Source of the DNA: Candidatus Heimdallarchaeota archaeon
GTDB lineage: Archaea; Asgardarchaeota; Heimdallarchaeia; Hodarchaeales; Hodarchaeaceae
Length of the DNA stretch: 64,000 nt
Reading direction: 5' to 3'
Assembly (NCBI GenBank): GCA_020353515.1
Contig: CP070695.1
Location: 3,806,277 to 3,870,276 of the forward strand
Both the position numbers and the translations under genes were made by a program. Within the stretch, counting starts at the first letter, position 1. Every line of letters begins with the position of its first letter. Below, one piece after another: positions 27,712 to 60,296 of the stretch. The notes beneath the pieces are model-generated. The model ran no database searches and was not told where the DNA came from. It saw nothing but the letters and a program-made list of their open reading frames with translations.

Positions 27712-30678
27712 ATGCTAAAGAGCGTTTTCGATCCAAAATCTATTGAGAGGGATTTAAAACCTAGGATCCAAGGGGATATTGCCATTGATGACATCAGTCG
27801 TAATTTCTTCAGCACTGATGCAAGTGTATATAGGATTGTGCCTTCCTGCGCCGTTTATCCCAAAAATAAAGAAGATGTGAAAACTGTAATAAAATACGCA
27901 AGTAGTAAGGGAATTCCTATCCATGCCAGAGGAGCTGGATCTGGATTAACGGGCTCAAGTCTAGGACCAGGAATTGTACTCGCTTTTAGAAGATATATGA
28001 ACCAGATTATCGAGATAAACGAAGATGAGGCATATACGATTGTGCAACCTGGAGTCATCTGTGGGAATTTGAACCACGAACTAGCTAAGATAGGAAAGAT
28101 TGTCTACGTCGATAATTCATCTGAAAATTATGCCTCTATTGGAGGAATGATAGGAACAAACTCATCAGGGGCACATGCAGCAAAGTACGGATATATGGCT
28201 GATTTTGTTGAAGAACTAACGGTTATTTTAAGTAATGGTGAAGAAATCAAGACTTATCCCATCGAAATTGATTCTGAAGAATATAATAGCAAAGTTACAG
28301 CGGATACATTAGAAGGAAATCTTTACAAATCAGTAGTAGACATGATTAACAATCCAGAGATTCAAGGTCTTATTTCAGAAAAATGGCCCAAGGTTAAAAT
28401 GAATGTTAGTGGCTATAACATAAGAGATATGGTAAAAGACAATATGGTTGACTTATCAAAAGCATTTTTGGGGTCTGAAGCAACTTTAGGAGTTGTTGTA
28501 GAGGCTAAACTTAAATATATTGACAAACCAATAGACAAAACCTTAGTAGTCATGGATTTCGACTCTCTTGCTAATTCAGGAAGAGCTGTAGACTTAATGG
28601 TAAATCAGATAGGAGTTGCTGCTATTGAAATGCTTGGCAAGGGTGTTATTGAATTTGGTATCGAAATGAACCCCGATTTGAAACAATTTATCCCCAAAAT
28701 TGTTGATAATATCCTTTACATTGAATTCGACGAACAAGATCCGAAAATCCGATCTGAAAAAGTCGAAAAAACGAGAAAATTAATTATTGAGCAAGAAAAA
28801 TTAGCCACAGATATGAGATTTTCTGATGATCCAGTTGAACAAACAAACCTTTGGAAAGTTAGAAAAGATGCAGTACCTTTACTTCAGAAAGTTCGTGAAC
28901 CTCGTCGTATTATGGCATTCGTAGAAGATCAAACAGTTCCCTTAGAACATTTAGGGCATTATATGACAAAGTTAAGAGAGGAAGTATTTCCTAAACATGG
29001 AATACGAGCAGCAATCTATGGACATGCATCGAAAGGACTTGTTCACACACGACCATTTGTTAATACAAAGGATCCAAAGGACTTACAAATTATAAAGGAT
29101 GTCGCGGATGAAATCAATTCCTATGTTATCAGTATAGGAGGAGCTGTCTCTGGTGAACACAATGATGGCCTTGATCGTGTAAATTTCATTATAGATATGT
29201 ATGGGGAAGACCTGTACGAAGTATTCAGGAAATTAAAAGCACAATTTGATCCAAATGGAATTTTAAATCCTGGGAAAAAGATTACAGATGAACAAGACCT
29301 AATAATAAAGAACTTACGCTTTGGTGCTGAGTATTCAACTTTAGATATGGACACAAATCTCGTTTGGGATGATAAGTGGGGATTTACAGACGTTATTGAA
29401 TCCTGTCACGGTTGTGGAAAATGTACTGTAGAATTGATTCCCCAAAGAGATTGTCCAATTTATAGAGCAAAAAGAGCAAGTACAGGAGAACTAGCCTCAC
29501 CAAGGGCTCGAGCAAATTTAATGCGTGGTATTATCTCTGGACAGTTAGATTACAAGATATTCCACTCAAAAGAAGCCAGAGAGGTATTAGAAGACTGTGC
29601 AGGATGCATGATGTGCATTGTCGACTGTCCCTCTTCAGTAAACATACCCAAAGCAATGTTTGACGCAAAAATCATGCACTATAAAAAATCAAAGTGGCCT
29701 TTTATCGGAAAAATTCCGAGAGGGCATTATTTCGCAGGTAACTATGAACTTATCGCTCGATTAGGAAGTACATTCGCGCCTCTATCAAATATAGGGTTGT
29801 GGGGACCAAACAAGTACATGATGCAACTCTTTGGAGGGGTTCACCACAAGGCAAACTTCCCAAAGTTTCGTAGAAAAACTTTCCAAAAATGGTTCAAGAA
29901 TTATCGTAAATCAAACCCACCTCCCAGTAATCCTACAAAGAAAGTAGCAATTTTCCATGGTTGTTTTGCTAACTACACCGAAAATACAGATATTGCTATT
30001 GCAGAAGTCCAAGTTCTGGAAAAAAATAACATCGAAGTAGTTGTTCCTGATAAACAATATTGCTGTGGAATTCCACTTCTCTCTAATGGTCTCGGTCATG
30101 TGGCGATTAAGAAAGGTGAGAAAAACGCAAAAATTTTTGCAGAATATGTAAAGCAAGGATACGATGTTGTAACCCAATGTAGTTCCTGTTTCGCCACACT
30201 TAAGGATGAATTACACGATACACTAGTTGGGAACGATGACTCGAAGGTAGTCAAAGATAAAACCTATTTCTTCTCTGATTATATCCTAAAACTTAAAGAA
30301 GAGGGAAATTTAAACACTGATTTCAATGGTTCAACAGGAAAGAAACTTCGTTTTGGCTACCACGAACCATGTCATCTTCTTAGTACTGGTAGTAAAGGAA
30401 TATCTGTAAATTTACTAAAAAATGTAGATAGTATAGACCTAATCCCTCTTAAAACTGAATGTTGTGGTCAGCTAGGATCTTGGGCTTTTAAATCAAAGAA
30501 TTACAAGTATGGGCAAATCATTGCTGAAAGAAGTTTATACCCAGAGGCAAAGAGAGAGGATATTGATGTTCTCGTCACTGATTGTCCTACATGTAAACTC
30601 CAGCTCCTAAATGTTGATAAAGAGATCTATCACCCCACCCAAGTTCTTCGAGACGCTTATGGTTTAGAAAAACCTTAA
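27712..30678 (+). CDS. FAD-binding (GlcD/D-lactate dehydrogenase-like) and Fe-S/CCG (GlpC-like) fusion oxidoreductase
   Basis: RGAGSGLTG, GSEATLG, GHASKGLVHTRP, SGEHNDG, FDPNGILNPGK; CHGCGKC, CAGCMMCIVDCP; CCG domains. Confidence 0.88.
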   Translation: MLKSVFDPKSIERDLKPRIQGDIAIDDISRNFFSTDASVYRIVPSCAVYPKNKEDVKTVIKYASSKGIPIHARGAGSGLTGSSLGPGIVLAFRRYMNQIIEINEDEAYTIVQPGVICGNLNHELAKIGKIVYVDNSSENYASIGGMIGTNSSGAHAAKYGYMADFVEELTVILSNGEEIKTYPIEIDSEEYNSKVTADTLEGNLYKSVVDMINNPEIQGLISEKWPKVKMNVSGYNIRDMVKDNMVDLSKAFLGSEATLGVVVEAKLKYIDKPIDKTLVVMDFDSLANSGRAVDLMVNQIGVAAIEMLGKGVIEFGIEMNPDLKQFIPKIVDNILYIEFDEQDPKIRSEKVEKTRKLIIEQEKLATDMRFSDDPVEQTNLWKVRKDAVPLLQKVREPRRIMAFVEDQTVPLEHLGHYMTKLREEVFPKHGIRAAIYGHASKGLVHTRPFVNTKDPKDLQIIKDVADEINSYVISIGGAVSGEHNDGLDRVNFIIDMYGEDLYEVFRKLKAQFDPNGILNPGKKITDEQDLIIKNLRFGAEYSTLDMDTNLVWDDKWGFTDVIESCHGCGKCTVELIPQRDCPIYRAKRASTGELASPRARANLMRGIISGQLDYKIFHSKEAREVLEDCAGCMMCIVDCPSSVNIPKAMFDAKIMHYKKSKWPFIGKIPRGHYFAGNYELIARLGSTFAPLSNIGLWGPNKYMMQLFGGVHHKANFPKFRRKTFQKWFKNYRKSNPPPSNPTKKVAIFHGCFANYTENTDIAIAEVQVLEKNNIEVVVPDKQYCCGIPLLSNGLGHVAIKKGEKNAKIFAEYVKQGYDVVTQCSSCFATLKDELHDTLVGNDDSKVVKDKTYFFSDYILKLKEEGNLNTDFNGSTGKKLRFGYHEPCHLLSTGSKGISVNLLKNVDSIDLIPLKTECCGQLGSWAFKSKNYKYGQIIAERSLYPEAKREDIDVLVTDCPTCKLQLLNVDKEIYHPTQVLRDAYGLEKP

Positions 30679-50558: not shown

Positions 50559-53678
<3,120 letters not shown>

Positions 53679-53827
53679 TCATCAACTTTTCTCGAATATC
53701 TCATTCCCCTTTTAAAGGTTTGAATTATTATAACTTGATATATCTCTAGTATCTACCTTTTTCTGCTAAACGTTTAAAAAAAAAATCTTGAAAAATGTCC
53801 ACAATCAAGAAAGGTGGATTAAATACA

Positions 53828-54295
53828 ATGAGCAAACAGGAAAAAGTGGAATTCTACAAAGAACAAATCAACATAGAGAACACAATAGTTGAAAAGGCTG
53901 AAAAAGCAGTCCAAGGGATGGAAAATATTCTGATTCGGGAACTAATTCTTGGGATCGCTTTGGATTCAAAAAAGCATGCAGGCATGTTAAATGCATTAGT
54001 GAGTATATATACCAAACCAACTCCCTCTGTTGCCGAAGAATTCGGAGAAGATCTGAAAAAAGCTATTGCAGAGCACATTGAGCTAGAACAGCAAGCAATT
54101 GATGCTTATCAGGAACAATTAGACAACACCGATAATGAAAGTGAAAAACTCATCATCAAGGCCATCCTCAATGATGAAAAAAAGCACCACACGCTCCTCC
54201 AAACAATCCAAAAAATGATTGTTGAAAAATTAACCCTATCAGAAAATGAGCTTTGGGAGATGGTAGAAGAAAGCTTTTTTGATTTCGGGGAATAG
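53828..54295 (+). CDS. Ferritin-like (rubrerythrin-type four-helix) protein
   Basis: DSKKH and EKKHH diiron-type motifs, HIELE. Confidence 0.65.
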   Translation: MSKQEKVEFYKEQINIENTIVEKAEKAVQGMENILIRELILGIALDSKKHAGMLNALVSIYTKPTPSVAEEFGEDLKKAIAEHIELEQQAIDAYQEQLDNTDNESEKLIIKAILNDEKKHHTLLQTIQKMIVEKLTLSENELWEMVEESFFDFGE

Positions 54296-54421: not shown

Positions 54422-56812
54422 TTAGGCAGCAGCCTTTGCTTCTTTGTGAGCAACCTCATGATTTTTACGAGCAATTTTACTCATCTCTGTGACGACATCA
54501 GCAAATTTCTTGCCCTCAGCAGCTGACATCCATTCAATGATAAAGCGCTCATCAGCGATACCTTGTTTCTTCATCCAGCGACGAATCTTTCTCTCACGCT
54601 TCAATGCCCAATCGTTTCCAGAGATATAATGACAGTCTTGAGGATGACACCCAGTCAGCATTACAGCACCTGCACCTCGTTCAAAAGCCCGCTTGATGAA
54701 GTCAACATCGACACGTCCAGAACACATAGTCCTAACTATACGGGAATTGGTTGGATACTGAATTCGGCTTGTTCCAGCAAGATCAGCGCCTCCATACGAG
54801 CACCAATTGCAAGCGAAGATCATCACCTTCTCTGAAGCGTTATCTCTTAGGGCAATGTCTACTTGTCGAAGGATCATCGCGTCAGTAAAGTTAGTCATGG
54901 TAATGCAGTCTTTTGGACAATCTGCGGCACAGGTTCCGCATCCTTTACACAAGATGGGGTTGACATGAGCTGGAGTCTTTTTCTTCGTATCCACACTAAT
55001 AGCATTGTATGGGCAACGTTTTGCACATGTTCCACAGGAATTGCACAGTTCGGTATCTACATAGGCAAACAGGGGTTCAACACTAAACTCTCCTTTAGTA
55101 AGTAATCGTGTAACTCTTCCTGCTGAAGCACTAGCCTGAGTAACACACTCACGAATGTCTTTTGGAGCTTCTGCCCCGCCAGCAATGAATACACCATCAG
55201 TTGGAGTATCAACGGGTTTTAATTTGGGGTGAGCTTCAATATAGAACCCTTTAGGATCTCTTGAGACAGGAAATGGTATGGGATATGCAGAACCTTCCGC
55301 CCCAACAGAAAGTACAACTAGATCGAATTCTTTAGTAAGAAGTTTTCCTGACCGAGTATCTTCTACAGATACAAAGAGATTATTATCTCCAGGATTCTCT
55401 TCTATCAAACTTGGACGTCCACGGATATAATGAACTCCTTCCTCTCTAGAACGAGTGTAAAGCTCCTCAAAACCTTTACCAAAGGCTCTAATGTCCATAT
55501 AGAAAACAGAAATATCTACTTCAGGCCAGTGTTCTTTGATGAGTAGACTATCTTTTATAACTTCCATGCAGCAGAAATTACTACAGTATGGGTTGAATCG
55601 AACGTCTCGTGATCCGACACAATTGATAAATGCGACACTTTTAGGAGGTTTAAGGTCACTGGGCCTAACAAGTTCTCCCGAGGTAGGACCAGCAGCATTA
55701 ATCAAACGTTCAAATTCGAAAGTTGTTACAACATTAGGATACTGTCCCCATCCGTATTCAGGGATCTTAGAGGCATCAAAAATCTCAAAACCCGTTGCTA
55801 CAATTATTGAACCAACTTTATAGGTATATGTCTTTTCAGTATCCTCGTAATTAATAGCTTCTTTATCACATGTGCCAGCACACTTTCCACATGCTAAAGG
55901 GGAAAGTCCAAGGCAGTTATCGGTATCTATCAAGTAAGCTGCTGGGACAGACTGTGGATATGGAATATATATTGCTTTTCTCCAACCTAGATTACCAGAA
56001 TACTCGTCAATGACGTTTACAGGACAGATATCTATGCAATCATTACATGCTGTACAAAGATCCTCGTCAACATAGCGTGCTTGCTTCTTAATTGTAACCT
56101 CAAAATTCCCCACATATCCTTCAATATTTGTTACTTCTGCACTTGCAATTAAATCGATATTCTGGTGATTACCCACATCAGCCATTTTTGGACCAAGGAT
56201 ACAAATAGAACAATCCATTGTAGGAAATGTTTTGTCAATTAAAGCCATTTTTCCGCCAATCGTCGGACTTTTCTCAACCATGACGACTTGATAATCATCA
56301 GCTAAGTCTAACGCTGCCTGAATCCCAGCTACTCCTCCACCGATGATCAATACCCTTTTCTCAACAGGAACTACGATTTCGTCAACAGCCTCGAGTAACT
56401 CGGCCTTGGCTATTGCCATTTCAGTTAATTCTTTTGCTTTTAAGGTCGCTTCTTCTTTCTCATGAAGATGTACCCAAGAGCAATGTTCTCTGATATTAGC
56501 AACCTCGACTACTTCTGGGTTCATTCCAACACGTTTTAACAGGTTTTTCCATGTTGGAAGATGTAATCTTGGGGAACAGGCTGATACAACTATTTTTTCT
56601 ATTCCTTGTTCTTTAATTGCTTCCTCAATTTCAACTTGTCCTGGATCTGAACAAGTATAGGTGTTTACCTGAACGAGTTTTACTCCTGGTAACTGCTCTG
56701 CTTCTTTAGCTATTTCATCGATATCAACGGTACCACCAATATTCTTCCCACATTTACAGAGAAAAACACCAATTTTAGATTCTTCAGTTGGTTGATCTAC
56801 ACTTTCAGTCAT
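54422..56812 (-). CDS. hdrA: Heterodisulfide reductase subunit A fused to MvhD (HdrA-MvhD)
   Basis: CKCGKNI/YTCS/ACSP/NIREHCSWVH N-terminal cluster; IGGGVAG FAD; KTFPTMDCSIC; CVGSRD, CSNFCC; four ferredoxin-type motifs; C-terminal MvhD FACNWCSY..MCSGRV..GCHPQDCHYISGN. Confidence 0.93.
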   Translation of the reverse strand: MTESVDQPTEESKIGVFLCKCGKNIGGTVDIDEIAKEAEQLPGVKLVQVNTYTCSDPGQVEIEEAIKEQGIEKIVVSACSPRLHLPTWKNLLKRVGMNPEVVEVANIREHCSWVHLHEKEEATLKAKELTEMAIAKAELLEAVDEIVVPVEKRVLIIGGGVAGIQAALDLADDYQVVMVEKSPTIGGKMALIDKTFPTMDCSICILGPKMADVGNHQNIDLIASAEVTNIEGYVGNFEVTIKKQARYVDEDLCTACNDCIDICPVNVIDEYSGNLGWRKAIYIPYPQSVPAAYLIDTDNCLGLSPLACGKCAGTCDKEAINYEDTEKTYTYKVGSIIVATGFEIFDASKIPEYGWGQYPNVVTTFEFERLINAAGPTSGELVRPSDLKPPKSVAFINCVGSRDVRFNPYCSNFCCMEVIKDSLLIKEHWPEVDISVFYMDIRAFGKGFEELYTRSREEGVHYIRGRPSLIEENPGDNNLFVSVEDTRSGKLLTKEFDLVVLSVGAEGSAYPIPFPVSRDPKGFYIEAHPKLKPVDTPTDGVFIAGGAEAPKDIRECVTQASASAGRVTRLLTKGEFSVEPLFAYVDTELCNSCGTCAKRCPYNAISVDTKKKTPAHVNPILCKGCGTCAADCPKDCITMTNFTDAMILRQVDIALRDNASEKVMIFACNWCSYGGADLAGTSRIQYPTNSRIVRTMCSGRVDVDFIKRAFERGAGAVMLTGCHPQDCHYISGNDWALKRERKIRRWMKKQGIADERFIIEWMSAAEGKKFADVVTEMSKIARKNHEVAHKEAKAAA

Positions 56813-56830
56813 TGTTATCACTTAATATCA

Positions 56831-57700
56831 TTATTTCTTCTTTTGAGCCACATCTCGAAGATGTTGAACCTTCTGACTAAAACCCTCCCTTGGCGCATCA
56901 ACAAACTCCCCGCAGATTATCTTCCCCTGTTTGAAGTCAAATGTAGCTTCATGAGGTGGCCAATCAGTTTTTATCCTCACTTGATTTTTTATCCAGTCTA
57001 ACATCTGGACAGCGTCACCGAGCTTGTTCTTGCGACCGTATTGGGTGAAACATGGAGCAAGCACTTCGATGAAGCTAAATCCTGGATTATCAAATGATTT
57101 TAAAATGCTGTTTCTTAATCTGATAGTGTCATATCCAGGCCAACGGGCAACATAACTTGCCCCTGAAGCTGCTGCTAATGAAACTAAATTGAATGGAGGT
57201 TCAATATTCCCATAAGGAGTGGTTGTTGTGAAGTCACCTATCTGAGTGGTCGGAGCACATTGACCTCCAGTCATCCCATAGACATTGTTATTTATACACA
57301 GAACGGTTATTTCTACATTTCTTCTACAGGCATGGATGAAATGATTCCCACCAATGGCAAAAAGATCTCCGTCTCCTGAAAGAACAACTACTTCAAGATT
57401 AGGATTTGCCAGTTTCAACCCTGTAGCAAAGGGAATAGCTCTCCCATGCGTTGTGTGAAAAGCAGGAGAATTAAAACATCCACTAGATCGGCCAGTGCAA
57501 CCAATACCTGAAACCACTGCATAATCTTTAGATGTGAGACCTCTTTCTGCAAAACAGCTAGTTATAGATGTTATTGCTGATCCGATCAGACAACCAGGAC
57601 AAAAGATAAATCGATGTAAGTTTAACCTTTCATGTAAGGGATGATCCTCAGGGATCTCGTCAGAACTTTTTGGAGCTGGAATTTTATCTGTTGTTGTCAT
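56831..57700 (-). CDS. korB: 2-oxoacid:ferredoxin oxidoreductase beta subunit (2-oxoglutarate-type)
   Basis: FCPGC, VSGIGC, HTTHGRA, SGDGD (TPP), NNNVYGMTGGQ. Confidence 0.85.
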   Translation of the reverse strand: MTTTDKIPAPKSSDEIPEDHPLHERLNLHRFIFCPGCLIGSAITSITSCFAERGLTSKDYAVVSGIGCTGRSSGCFNSPAFHTTHGRAIPFATGLKLANPNLEVVVLSGDGDLFAIGGNHFIHACRRNVEITVLCINNNVYGMTGGQCAPTTQIGDFTTTTPYGNIEPPFNLVSLAAASGASYVARWPGYDTIRLRNSILKSFDNPGFSFIEVLAPCFTQYGRKNKLGDAVQMLDWIKNQVRIKTDWPPHEATFDFKQGKIICGEFVDAPREGFSQKVQHLRDVAQKKK

Positions 57701-57702
57701 AT

Positions 57703-58857
57703 TTAAACCTCCTTTAGCAACTCCTCATAAATAAACCGTGGACTGAAGGGAATGGTTGTTGGTACTAAACTACCAGTTACTTCAAATCCAAGATGTCGGA
57801 ATCGTTCAACTTCTCGGATCACTTGACCATAATTCATTTCGCTAACAATCACTTTTTTCAAGCCAAGCTGACCTAATTTTTCCATGAGTTTTTCGGGAAA
57901 AGGCCACAACGTTCTTAATCTCACTAAACCGACCTTATGGCCTTCTTTGCGTGCACGTTCAACTGCCTCGGGAACGCCTCTTGAATTAATACCATAAGAT
58001 AAAATAACCGTCTCGGCATCATCTAAATGTTGTTCCTCCCATGGGACGTATTCATTAATCGCAACGCTCGCGTTTCTAATCTTATCACAAAGACGTGTAA
58101 TAAGCTTTATCGCTCTCTCTGGAGTCATATCTGGACTTCCAGTGTCATCATGAGTCAACCCTGTTACATAAAAGTTATATTCTGTTCCAGCTGTAGCCAT
58201 ACCTGGAACCAAGTCCTCATCGAGAACTTCAAATGGTTTGTATTCCTCTGGAGGAACTTGGGGAGGTTTTCGGTTGATAACTTCAAAATTTGAGTGATAC
58301 CTTACAGGTTCCATCATTTGACCTACTATGCCATCTGATGCAATAATAACTGGTGTTCGATACTTCTCAGCTAAATTAAAACCATATATAGAGAAATCGT
58401 AACATTCTTGAACTGTACCTGGAGCAAGAACGATCATCTCATAATCCCCATGTGAAAGGTATCGTGTTTGCATAACATCAGATTGTGAGGCTTTAGTAGG
58501 TTGTCCAGTGCTAGGTCCCCCTCGCATCACAGTGATAACTACCATAGGTGCTTCCAACATGAATCCTAAACCAATAGTTTCCGCCATTAAGGACAATCCA
58601 GGACCAGATGTCGCAGTCATTGCTTTAACACCAGCGTAGGAAGCTCCTACTACCGAAACAATCGAAGCTAGTTCATCTTCCATTTGGATGAAGGTACCAC
58701 CAACTTGAGGAAGACGTCTTGACATATAATGGGCAATTTCTGAGGATGGAGTAATGGGATACCCTCCAAAGTAGCGGCAGCCAACCGCAATAGCTCCTTC
58801 AGCACTCGCATAATTTCCAGTAGTAAGTACTAGCTTTCCATTATTATCACTACTCAT
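57703..58857 (-). CDS. korA: 2-oxoacid:ferredoxin oxidoreductase alpha subunit (no fused gamma domain)
   Basis: GYPITPSSE, QMEDE, TATSGPG, RGGPSTG, HGDY, TGLTHD, EMNYGQ. Confidence 0.88.
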   Translation of the reverse strand: MSSDNNGKLVLTTGNYASAEGAIAVGCRYFGGYPITPSSEIAHYMSRRLPQVGGTFIQMEDELASIVSVVGASYAGVKAMTATSGPGLSLMAETIGLGFMLEAPMVVITVMRGGPSTGQPTKASQSDVMQTRYLSHGDYEMIVLAPGTVQECYDFSIYGFNLAEKYRTPVIIASDGIVGQMMEPVRYHSNFEVINRKPPQVPPEEYKPFEVLDEDLVPGMATAGTEYNFYVTGLTHDDTGSPDMTPERAIKLITRLCDKIRNASVAINEYVPWEEQHLDDAETVILSYGINSRGVPEAVERARKEGHKVGLVRLRTLWPFPEKLMEKLGQLGLKKVIVSEMNYGQVIREVERFRHLGFEVTGSLVPTTIPFSPRFIYEELLKEV

Positions 58858-59138
58858 GAACTCTCCTCCTGTAGTAATTGTATCTCAGTTACAAATATTG
58901 AGACAGAGGGGCAGATCCGCTCACACTGTTGACACCCTACACATTCATCTGGCTTAACAGCAATCGCAGGGTGTAACATTCTTGAGTTGTATGCCTCCAT
59001 ATCGATCTCCAATACGTCTGTTGGACAGAACTCCACACATAATTCACATCCATCACACTGTTCAGGTAGTATCGTCACGACATACTCCTTATCAGTAGTT
59101 GGAGGAGGTAATATGGGCTTCCGTTGGCTTCTTAACAT
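58854..59138 (-). CDS. korD: 2x[4Fe-4S] ferredoxin, OFOR delta subunit
   Basis: CDGCELCVEFCP and CVGCQQCERICP; stop overlaps korA start. Confidence 0.85.
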   Translation of the reverse strand: MLRSQRKPILPPPTTDKEYVVTILPEQCDGCELCVEFCPTDVLEIDMEAYNSRMLHPAIAVKPDECVGCQQCERICPSVSIFVTEIQLLQEESS

Positions 59139-59707
59139 TTTCTTTCCTCTTTGTGAAGTTTAGACTTCCAATCAATATTTTTCTTAGTTGTGCTTCAATT
59201 TAATGACTAGGCTTTTAACTTTGTTTTCTATTTCGCTGATTCGTTTTCACTTTATAGTTACTTCTTAATCATAAGATCTGATAACTAAAATCACTAATTA
59301 GCGAACCTTGTGTAATTTTTCAATTGTTAACTATTAAAGATGAGATATTTTCTAATAATAACAACAAAAGATTTATCTGACTTGTAAAGATTCTTAGTCA
59401 ATCTTTTTAAGCAGATGCTAGCAATAAGACTGATTACTTAATCTAGTATCTTGACGATCTATTCAAGGATTCTTTGATTCAATAGGTAGAGTAATATCTC
59501 CAACTATTCCGATACATAATAGCTGATGATTATTTATAATAATTATTCTACGCAGGTCAAAATTAAACAATTGTTATGTGTGAAAATAATACCATTCTAT
59601 CTAATGGTAGATCCTGCTTCAAAATATAATATAGATTGTAGCAAGTAAAAGTAATAATAATGAAATTATTCTTGATTCAAAAATTGAAAAAAAAAAAGGG
59701 AGTATCT

Positions 59708-60250
59708 CTATTTTAGGATTGGATATTTCTCTACGAAAGAAAGTTTTGACCATTTTTCGCCTAAGCCAAGGTAATTCCCAACTGGCACTATAATGAATAA
59801 TAATAGTACTAGAATATAGATAATGTGTTCATCGATTAAAGGATTAAATACCATAGTACCTTGAGCTGGAGCAATTATCCACTCCGAGAGGTATACTGAA
59901 GATAGAAAGATTATTGTAGAAATACTTGATAGTCTTACAAGTACACCAGACATGAGTCCAACACCAGCGAACAGCAACATTCCCATATAAGCAATATCTA
60001 CTAGTTGATATGCATTCCCTAAGGTGTCGGAGAAGAGGAAGGCGAATGGGCTATTCTGGTTTACACCATAAAACTGCAAAAATCCTTGTGTAGGAGATGC
60101 ACCAGCAAGCCACGAGTTTTCAGGTGCTGTAGCAAACCTTAAACCGAACATTTTATCTAAGAATGGCCAAAGGAACACAAAACCCATCGCTATTCTTATT
60201 ATACCAAGAGTTTTTTGATCAAGATTATATTTTTCGAACTTAGAATTCAA
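59708..60250 (-). CDS. DoxX/DoxD-like membrane protein
   Basis: RIAMGFVFLWPFLDKMFG..SW..G.SPT.GFL, NPLIDEHIIY; TTG 60250 preferred. Confidence 0.7.
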   Translation of the reverse strand: MNSKFEKYNLDQKTLGIIRIAMGFVFLWPFLDKMFGLRFATAPENSWLAGASPTQGFLQFYGVNQNSPFAFLFSDTLGNAYQLVDIAYMGMLLFAGVGLMSGVLVRLSSISTIIFLSSVYLSEWIIAPAQGTMVFNPLIDEHIIYILVLLLFIIVPVGNYLGLGEKWSKLSFVEKYPILK

Positions 60251-60282
60251 TTCTTTTCCCTCTATGATTAGTTTGATTCTAA

Positions 60283-60296
60283 TTAACAATTGTTAA
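60283..60296. promoter_or_regulatory. Perfect 14-bp palindrome TTAACAATTGTTAA in a divergent promoter region (candidate operator)
   Basis: Read directly; one-mismatch copy at 27586-27599. Confidence 0.35.

Follow-up and report, generated by a model that had tools for sequence, protein, structure and literature searches.

The 64,000-nucleotide stretch of Candidatus Heimdallarchaeota DNA (Asgard archaea, order Hodarchaeales) analysed here (contig CP070695.1, positions 3,806,277 to 3,870,276; hereafter the window) carries a four-gene operon, korD-korA-korB-hdrA::mvhD, in which three subunit genes of a 2-oxoacid:ferredoxin oxidoreductase (OFOR) are followed directly by a gene for an HdrA-MvhD fusion protein. 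The operon is a real OFOR-Hdr module from which the gamma subunit gene and hdrBC have been displaced and in which HdrA and MvhD are fused; as such, it is a biochemically uncharacterised variant of a linkage that is already known. We judge it fairly probable that the OFOR and HdrA form one redox unit and exchange low-potential electrons directly, a unit whose physical complex and electron path we infer from conserved gene order and a predicted interface.

The korD-korA-korB-hdrA::mvhD operon and its gamma subunit

The ORF (open reading frame) listing and the translations place all four genes co-directionally on the minus strand. They are tightly packed, as an earlier sequence-only reading of this DNA had described: korD and korA overlap by 4 bp, korA and korB are separated by 2 bp, and hdrA::mvhD follows korB after 18 bp if counted from an ATG start or 9 bp from a GTG start. 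The GTG lies at 56821 (799 aa) and the ATG at 56812 (796 aa); the ATG is the more likely start, judging from a consensus of 37 homologs. The first gene, korD (58854-59138, minus strand, 94 aa), encodes a delta subunit of the 2x[4Fe-4S] ferredoxin type, with matches to Fer4 families and a sub-threshold match to OorD; the eight Cys residues of its two CxxCxxCxxxCP motifs are invariant among the 37 homologs. The alpha subunit gene korA (57703-58857, minus strand, 384 aa) has the Pfam domains POR_N (E-value 1.5e-66) and PFOR_II (9.8e-18) and scores 475 bits on NF006412 (2-oxoacid:acceptor oxidoreductase alpha), above the cut-off of 411; its nearest solved chains are 1yd7, 8ys5 and 6n2n. Pfam and NCBIfam place no POR (gamma) domain in KorA, so the earlier description of an alpha subunit without a fused gamma domain stands. 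The beta subunit gene korB (56831-57700, minus strand, 289 aa) encodes a thiamine pyrophosphate (TPP)-binding protein (TPP_enzyme_C, E-value 4.3e-33) with CPGC and GDGD...NN motifs; its top NCBIfam match, NF007207 (2-oxoglutarate:ferredoxin oxidoreductase beta), reaches 242 bits, below the cut-off of 364. Among the operon proteins, the PadG and PadI models of NCBIfam gave weak matches only.

Three subunits (delta, alpha and beta) of a four-subunit OFOR of the OorDABC/KorDABG class are thus encoded at the locus. Its delta-alpha-beta gene order, its domains, and its TPP and iron-sulfur (Fe-S) motifs are those of this type (8ys5 and 1yd7, with the two-subunit MmOGOR, 6n2n, as a further relative). 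It departs from the type in that the gamma gene does not follow korB, that no POR domain (PF01558) is found in the operon or the window, and that korB is followed by a translationally coupled HdrA-MvhD gene. The probable substrate is 2-oxoglutarate, judging from two indications: i) the nearest solved relatives are 2-keto acid and 2-oxoglutarate enzymes, and ii) a cluster of tricarboxylic acid (TCA) or reductive TCA (rTCA) cycle genes lies 4-24 kb from the operon. This cluster, which the sequence-only reading had rightly recognised, comprises sucCD, a two-subunit fumarase, sdhAB/frdAB, ATP-citrate lyase, icd and aconitase.

The fusion gene (54422-56812, minus strand, 796 aa from the ATG) encodes an HdrA2-type flavo-iron-sulfur protein that scores 1074.3 bits on the HdrA2 model NF040770, narrowly under its curated cut-off of 1100. 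Residues 13-662 match the HdrA chain of PDB entry 5odc at 740 bits with all Cys motifs kept, and residues 664-780 (54482-54832, minus strand) form an MvhD domain (PF02662 FlpD, E-value 1.4e-45) that matches solved MvhD chains. Residues E371 and K423 align with E356 and K409 of 5odc, which we take to be residues flanking the flavin, and both are invariant among the 37 homologs. Judged by its sequence, the fusion has lost none of the cofactor motifs of a bifurcating HdrA. The operon contains no hydrogenase genes, and tblastn queries for gamma, mvhA, mvhG, hdrB and hdrC found none of them in the window, in agreement with the earlier remark that hdrBC and mvhAG are absent there.

A gamma subunit is nevertheless encoded in the genome, contrary to the sequence-only reading, which had proposed a gamma-less enzyme with HdrA in the place of gamma. 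The host genome, a single contig of 4.94 Mb, contains six POR (gamma) domains: two are fused to the alpha subunits of two-subunit OFORs, two belong to gamma-delta-alpha-beta operons, one sits after an IorA-sized gene and a thioesterase, and one is an orphan. This orphan, here called gamma' (186 aa, genome positions 1570843-1571403), has a POR domain at 80 bits and is divergent, with 27% identity to the gamma subunits of relatives in the same class. A search for korC elsewhere in the genome therefore leads to this gene, 2.29 Mb from korDAB-hdrA::mvhD. All 14 Promethearchaeia (Loki-type) loci first fetched have the order gamma'-korD-korA-korB-hdrA::mvhD, and the gene directly upstream of korD in them is 59-64% identical to the host orphan; the same order holds in further Asgard loci.

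Within the genus, gamma' has been displaced by different distances (genomes and loci are designated by G and L numbers; the host is G000). The gene lies inverted, directly upstream of korD, in G013, G001, G006, L065-L067 and L069, and likewise in G022 of the sister family; it is 69 kb from the operon in G015 and on different contigs from it in G003, G008, G012, G014 and G017. In total, 12 of the 14 tested same-genus genomes with korB (G000 counted) possess gamma'. Since gamma' is operonic in Promethearchaeia and adjacent to korD in some genomes of the same genus, the enzyme is best described as having four subunits, with its gamma gene relocated and its gamma subunit likely still part of the assembly. 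An OFOR wholly devoid of gamma, with HdrA-MvhD as the structural replacement, agrees with the missing gamma gene of the window and with two genomes, G011 and G004, that have the operon and in which gamma' was not found. Against it stand the dedicated gamma' of the host, its operonic and korD-adjacent counterparts and its presence in most korB-bearing genomes; moreover, HdrA has no similarity to gamma. We regard such an enzyme as extremely improbable: HdrA does not replace gamma, and the gamma-less enzyme is a false lead that can be removed for this window.

In the host genome, gamma' lies directly downstream of a gene for an AsnC/Lrp-type regulator (G000:C1:1570843-1571987; L137:6843-7987), a pair that is conserved in G003, G008 and G012 (L139-L141). 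The pairing suggests that, once outside the operon, gamma' acquired a regulation of its own.

Conservation of the OFOR-HdrA linkage

The pairing of an OFOR with HdrA is not a peculiarity of one genome. It is conserved in Hodarchaeales, in Promethearchaeia, in other Heimdallarchaeia, in Bathyarchaeia and in several bacterial phyla, so that the sequence-only reading is not undone by uniqueness, one of the outcomes it had named as speaking against it. The closest relatives of the operon come from metagenome-assembled genomes (MAGs) that bear the labels Candidatus Hodarchaeota and Hodarchaeum. Wherever the flanking sequence suffices, loci of the same genus or order have korB adjoining hdrA::mvhD without exception, as do all 14 of the Promethearchaeia loci first fetched and all further Asgard loci with enough flank. 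Among the 21 other genomes of the genus, korB and the fusion are side by side in 14, and the fusion is cut at a contig end in two more; neither gene was found in the remaining five (G002, G007, G009, G010 and G021). The four of these five that were searched for gamma', G002, G007, G009 and G010, did not yield it either; korB, the fusion and gamma' travel together within the genus.

Other gene orders preserve the pairing. Other families of Heimdallarchaeia, and one further family, have a second arrangement, korD-korA-korB-korG-hdrA-mvhD-mvhG-mvhA. Farther afield, a set of 29 distant HdrA-MvhD fusion loci (51-56% identity) drawn from 185,579 species genomes carries OFOR genes in at least 20 cases. 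The order is hdrA2-korDABG in Bathyarchaeia and korDABG-hdrA2 in Deltaproteobacteria, Thermodesulfobacteriota and Acidobacteriota; in Fibrobacteraceae, Eisenbacteria and Thermoplasmata, korB-korG is followed by HdrA-like genes, mvhD and hdrA2. A hdrC-hdrB pair stands after hdrA2 in the same-genus genome L069, in L095, in L024/L103 and in many bacterial clusters. That the adjacency is conserved and withstands these rearrangements argues for the OFOR as a dedicated redox partner of an Hdr-type bifurcating flavoprotein.

The host KorB is 72-80% identical to its orthologs in Promethearchaeia, whereas relatives in its own class reach only about 50%. The phylogeny of KorB is a quick tree only; in it, the Hodarchaeales and Promethearchaeia operons form a clade of their own (SH-aLRT 100), the sisters of which are Asgard korDABG sets that have no hdrA in the locus. 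The korDABG-hdrA-mvhDGA type of the class relatives is separate and groups with bacterial versions. We therefore rejected that type as the direct ancestor of the operon: it is a separate KorB lineage and not an ortholog. The separate lineages imply that at least two lineages of OFOR acquired, or retained, the pairing with HdrA. The sequence comparison further suggests that the module was transferred between classes, as cross-class identity (~75-80%, or ~78% between the two classes) is far above in-class identity (~50%).

Two irregular sets of loci were encountered among the homologs. Three loci binned as Nanopelagicaceae, Desulfobacterales and Rhodobacteraceae (L090, L095 and L100) carry an Asgard-type operon with 72-77% identity to the host HdrA fusion; these are most likely mis-binned Asgard contigs and not bacterial copies. 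In the closed Heimdall-group MAG G015 (L022/L098, CP070760.1, 2865941 region), the match to hdrA::mvhD ends at residue 584, in a reading frame that stays open for 639 aa, which may reflect a truncation or frameshift of the fusion or an assembly error.

A candidate electron path from KorD to HdrA

To place the contact between the OFOR and the flavoprotein, a complex of HdrA::MvhD and KorD was modelled, each entering as a 37-row alignment. The modelled pair scored 0.64 as compared to 0.00 for the best of three controls, none of which was ferredoxin-like; solved complexes attain this mark in 58 of 80 cases and mismatched pairs in 2 of 110. The runs agreed in at least 67% of contacts, and the partner pLDDT (predicted local distance difference test) was at least 77. 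On the KorD side, the predicted interface consists of the cluster-binding loops 39-40 and 67-71 and of an N-terminal arm, residues 4-17; on the HdrA side, it consists of residues 264-282 and 304-313, within the inserted ferredoxin domain (Fer4_16, residues 256-319; 55865-56056, minus strand). This domain is the predicted docking site for KorD and, in the work on 5odc, is reported to be the low-potential exit of HdrA. The interface that the sequence-only reading had proposed to look for is thus predicted for the modelled pair, in which KorD stands without KorA and KorB.

Taken together, a model for the module can be put forward. KorDAB, with gamma' supplied in trans, would join HdrA-MvhD as a single redox unit. 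KorD, through its two [4Fe-4S] clusters, would exchange low-potential electrons with the inserted ferredoxin domain that forms the low-potential Fe-S branch of HdrA, and hence with the flavin adenine dinucleotide (FAD). This direct transfer would bypass or supplement free ferredoxin, by analogy with formylmethanofuran dehydrogenase, which in methanogens is wired to Hdr. Two further redox partners are probably encoded elsewhere in the genome: one of mid potential, a donor or acceptor such as F420H2 that would enter via MvhD or the flavin, and a high-potential disulfide branch of the HdrBC type. Coenzyme F420 is a plausible mid-potential partner because CofD and CofH of F420 biosynthesis score above cut-off in the host genome and because HdrA2 of Methanosarcina acetivorans is an F420H2- and ferredoxin-dependent enzyme (PMC5296606). 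As to direction, the nearby ATP-citrate lyase and TCA genes fit 2-oxoglutarate synthesis, and the near-identical operon of Promethearchaeia that ferment amino acids (PMC7015854) fits 2-oxoacid oxidation; we lean slightly towards a reversible unit for 2-oxoglutarate/succinyl-CoA interconversion beside the TCA/rTCA cluster. Extended to Asgard archaea and to many anaerobes, the model would have the delta subunit tie an OFOR directly to the ferredoxin domain inserted in a bifurcating HdrA, forming a ferredoxin-independent supercomplex that couples 2-oxoacid synthesis or oxidation to F420H2 (H2 in relatives) and to a thiol/disulfide couple; this extended form we advance tentatively, as a possibility.

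Several points weigh against a direct electron path. The synteny may reflect co-regulation through free ferredoxin and not a complex. The model took KorD without KorA and KorB, and much of the predicted contact runs through the N-terminal arm 4-17, which may bind KorA and KorB instead; the R-x-P motif of this arm also occurs in delta subunits from OFOR loci that, as fetched, contain no hdrA. The modelling result could, moreover, merely echo solved Hdr-polyferredoxin supercomplexes. The korB-bearing genomes in which gamma' was not found are 96% (G011) and 89% (G004) complete. With hdrBC, gamma' and hydrogenase genes all outside the host operon, the partners named above are guesses.

If co-regulation were all that the gene order records, the OFOR would reduce free ferredoxin, and HdrA-MvhD with an HdrBC encoded elsewhere would re-oxidise it with no stable complex between them, as a ferredoxin:disulfide oxidoreductase like the HdrA2B2C2 of M. 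acetivorans on acetate. HdrA2B2C2 indeed has ferredoxin:heterodisulfide oxidoreductase activity with soluble ferredoxin (PMC5296606), HdrBC-like pairs occur elsewhere in the genome, the N-terminal arm of KorD is generic to the delta family, and a shared operon is in itself no proof of binding. However, the adjacency persists between lineages that are far apart and has survived several reshufflings of the genes, which is more than partners linked only by a diffusible carrier usually show, and the KorD-HdrA2 model beat its controls. We consider this account rather unlikely. A further account, which we rate as improbable, makes HdrA-MvhD a non-bifurcating exit module that would turn the OFOR into a 2-oxoacid dehydrogenase reducing F420 or NAD(P). 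OFORs with an added flavoprotein subunit do exist, as represented by the PadG and PadI models of NCBIfam; phenylglyoxylate:NAD+ oxidoreductase, PadEFGHI, has five subunits including a flavoprotein and is a functional parallel. The host and Promethearchaeia operons contain neither hdrBC nor hydrogenase genes, F420 biosynthesis genes are present, and the HdrA2 of M. acetivorans oxidises F420H2 (PMC5296606). Countering this, hdrA2 is succeeded by hdrC-hdrB in one genome of the genus and in many clusters farther away, and another lineage has mvhDGA; the continuation and the mvhDGA lineage both point towards a three-way bifurcating system, and the fusion retains the full set of Fe-S motifs of a bifurcating HdrA. 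A direct exchange of electrons between KorD and HdrA is the reading that we consider most likely.

Known systems resemble the module in part. The M. acetivorans HdrA2B2C2 shares the fused HdrA-MvhD architecture, and the host, too, has F420 biosynthesis genes; unlike M. acetivorans, the host is not a methanogen, CoM-S-S-CoB (the coenzyme M-coenzyme B heterodisulfide) is an unlikely substrate, and equivalents of hdrB2C2 are not adjacent. The study that set HdrA-MvhD fusions apart as a subclass notes homologs in both domains and reports no OFOR partner (PMC5296606); the word 'oxoglutarate' is absent from that paper. In the methanogen Mvh/Fdh-Hdr-Fmd(Fwd) supercomplexes (5odc, 7bkb, 8rvu, 9sw2), to which HdrA and MvhD align over their full length, ferredoxin-like Fe-S modules hard-wire a bifurcating HdrA to an enzyme that fixes CO2, and the class relatives of the host keep mvhD-mvhG-mvhA after hdrA. 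The module differs from these supercomplexes in that the partner is a TPP-dependent OFOR instead of formylmethanofuran dehydrogenase and in that the docking site comes from a model only. A comparable cluster is that of the tubeworm symbiont Candidatus Endoriftia, in which a four-subunit 2-oxoglutarate:ferredoxin oxidoreductase (OGOR, KorABCD) is encoded between HdrA and HdrBC in an rTCA cluster and flavin-based bifurcation has been proposed to serve the OGOR step (PMC11636981). Both clusters have OGOR-class genes among Hdr genes and near TCA/rTCA genes; in Endoriftia, Kor comes with Flx, PntAB and Rnf genes, while the host here is an Asgard archaeon. The contiguous set of OGOR, hdrA and hdrBC genes of Endoriftia is not present in the window, where only hdrA::mvhD is contiguous with the OFOR genes and where Flx was not searched for. 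The description of the complex as undescribed in the sequence-only reading accordingly needs qualification: the Endoriftia cluster carries the same bifurcation hypothesis, while no Asgard-specific description of the operon was found in the literature. Imachi et al. do not describe it, and a comparative paper on anaerobic methanotrophic archaea (ANME) and a paper on Hdr-Vhu-Fwd mention oxoglutarate in unrelated contexts only.

Genomic surroundings and implications

No hdrB2C2-type pair adjoins the host fusion. The host genes that best match operon-type hdrB lie at 356999-357880 (46%) and 1568840-1569712; the second is part of a hdrC-hdrB pair (1568343-1569712, 40-42% match) located 1.1 kb from gamma'. 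This pair opens a set of four genes (G000:C1:1568343-1570759; L137:4343-6759) that is convergent with gamma' and encodes an HdrC-like protein (165 aa), an HdrB-like protein with two CCG domains (290 aa), a 136-aa ORF and a DUF5320 protein; this block recurs in G014 behind another paralog of hdrA and an mvhA-like gene, so that the hdrC-hdrB pair is no more than a candidate for the HdrBC partner of the host fusion. The sequence-only reading had asked for hdrBC and mvhAG elsewhere in the genome, and a canonical cluster of fused hdrBC, hdrA, mvhD, mvhG and mvhA is indeed found at ~1.528 Mb (1527760-1533856). A second HdrA-MvhD fusion (2978893-2983644; 795 aa, 30% identical) is followed by genes for the small and large subunits of a NiFe-hydrogenase. 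The host genome thus contains at least three HdrA systems, and further HdrA-like genes lie at ~1.75 Mb.

Upstream of korD lies an intergenic region of 569 bp (59139-59707), the presumed promoter, in the position that gamma' occupies in Promethearchaeia; tblastn detected no remnant of gamma in it. A scan for promoters and terminators returned sites no commoner than in shuffled sequence, with patterns of bacterial consensus applied to an archaeal host. The 193-aa ORF beyond this region (59708-60289) was examined as a hidden gamma and rejected (BLASTP against gamma', E-value 1.0; a weak DoxX-like hint in Pfam); from its sequence, it is probably a small membrane protein. At the other end, a rubrerythrin-like gene (53795-54295, plus strand; Pfam Rubrerythrin), convergent with hdrA::mvhD, closes the operon, and a rubrerythrin-like neighbour is also present in the same-genus loci L059, L060, L062, L069 and L146. 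Together with a gene for a glycoside hydrolase family 2 (GH2) beta-galactosidase (1036 aa), it fills the interval 50559-54295 between the operon and the TCA cluster; these two neighbours are found again in the nearest genomes of the genus (L059, L060, L062 and L146). The sole CCG-domain protein of the window, a 988-aa FAD-linked oxidase of the GlcD/D-lactate dehydrogenase type fused to HdrB-like CCG domains (27712-30678), is unrelated to the operon.

To the linkage already known, the present results add the location of gamma', its stepwise displacement within the genus, the same-genus continuation of the operon by hdrCB, and a predicted docking site for KorD. HdrA-MvhD (HdrA2) homologs occur widely outside the methanogens, and a large proportion is genetically tied to one class of OFOR, which makes this OFOR a concrete candidate partner for the non-methanogen homologs. 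If the complex is true, the most reducing step of the TCA or rTCA cycle could be driven, or exploited, without free ferredoxin; the module would then be the first non-methanogen counterpart of the CO2-fixing Hdr-Fmd supercomplex, and the HdrA2 homologs of non-methanogens would gain a physiological role.

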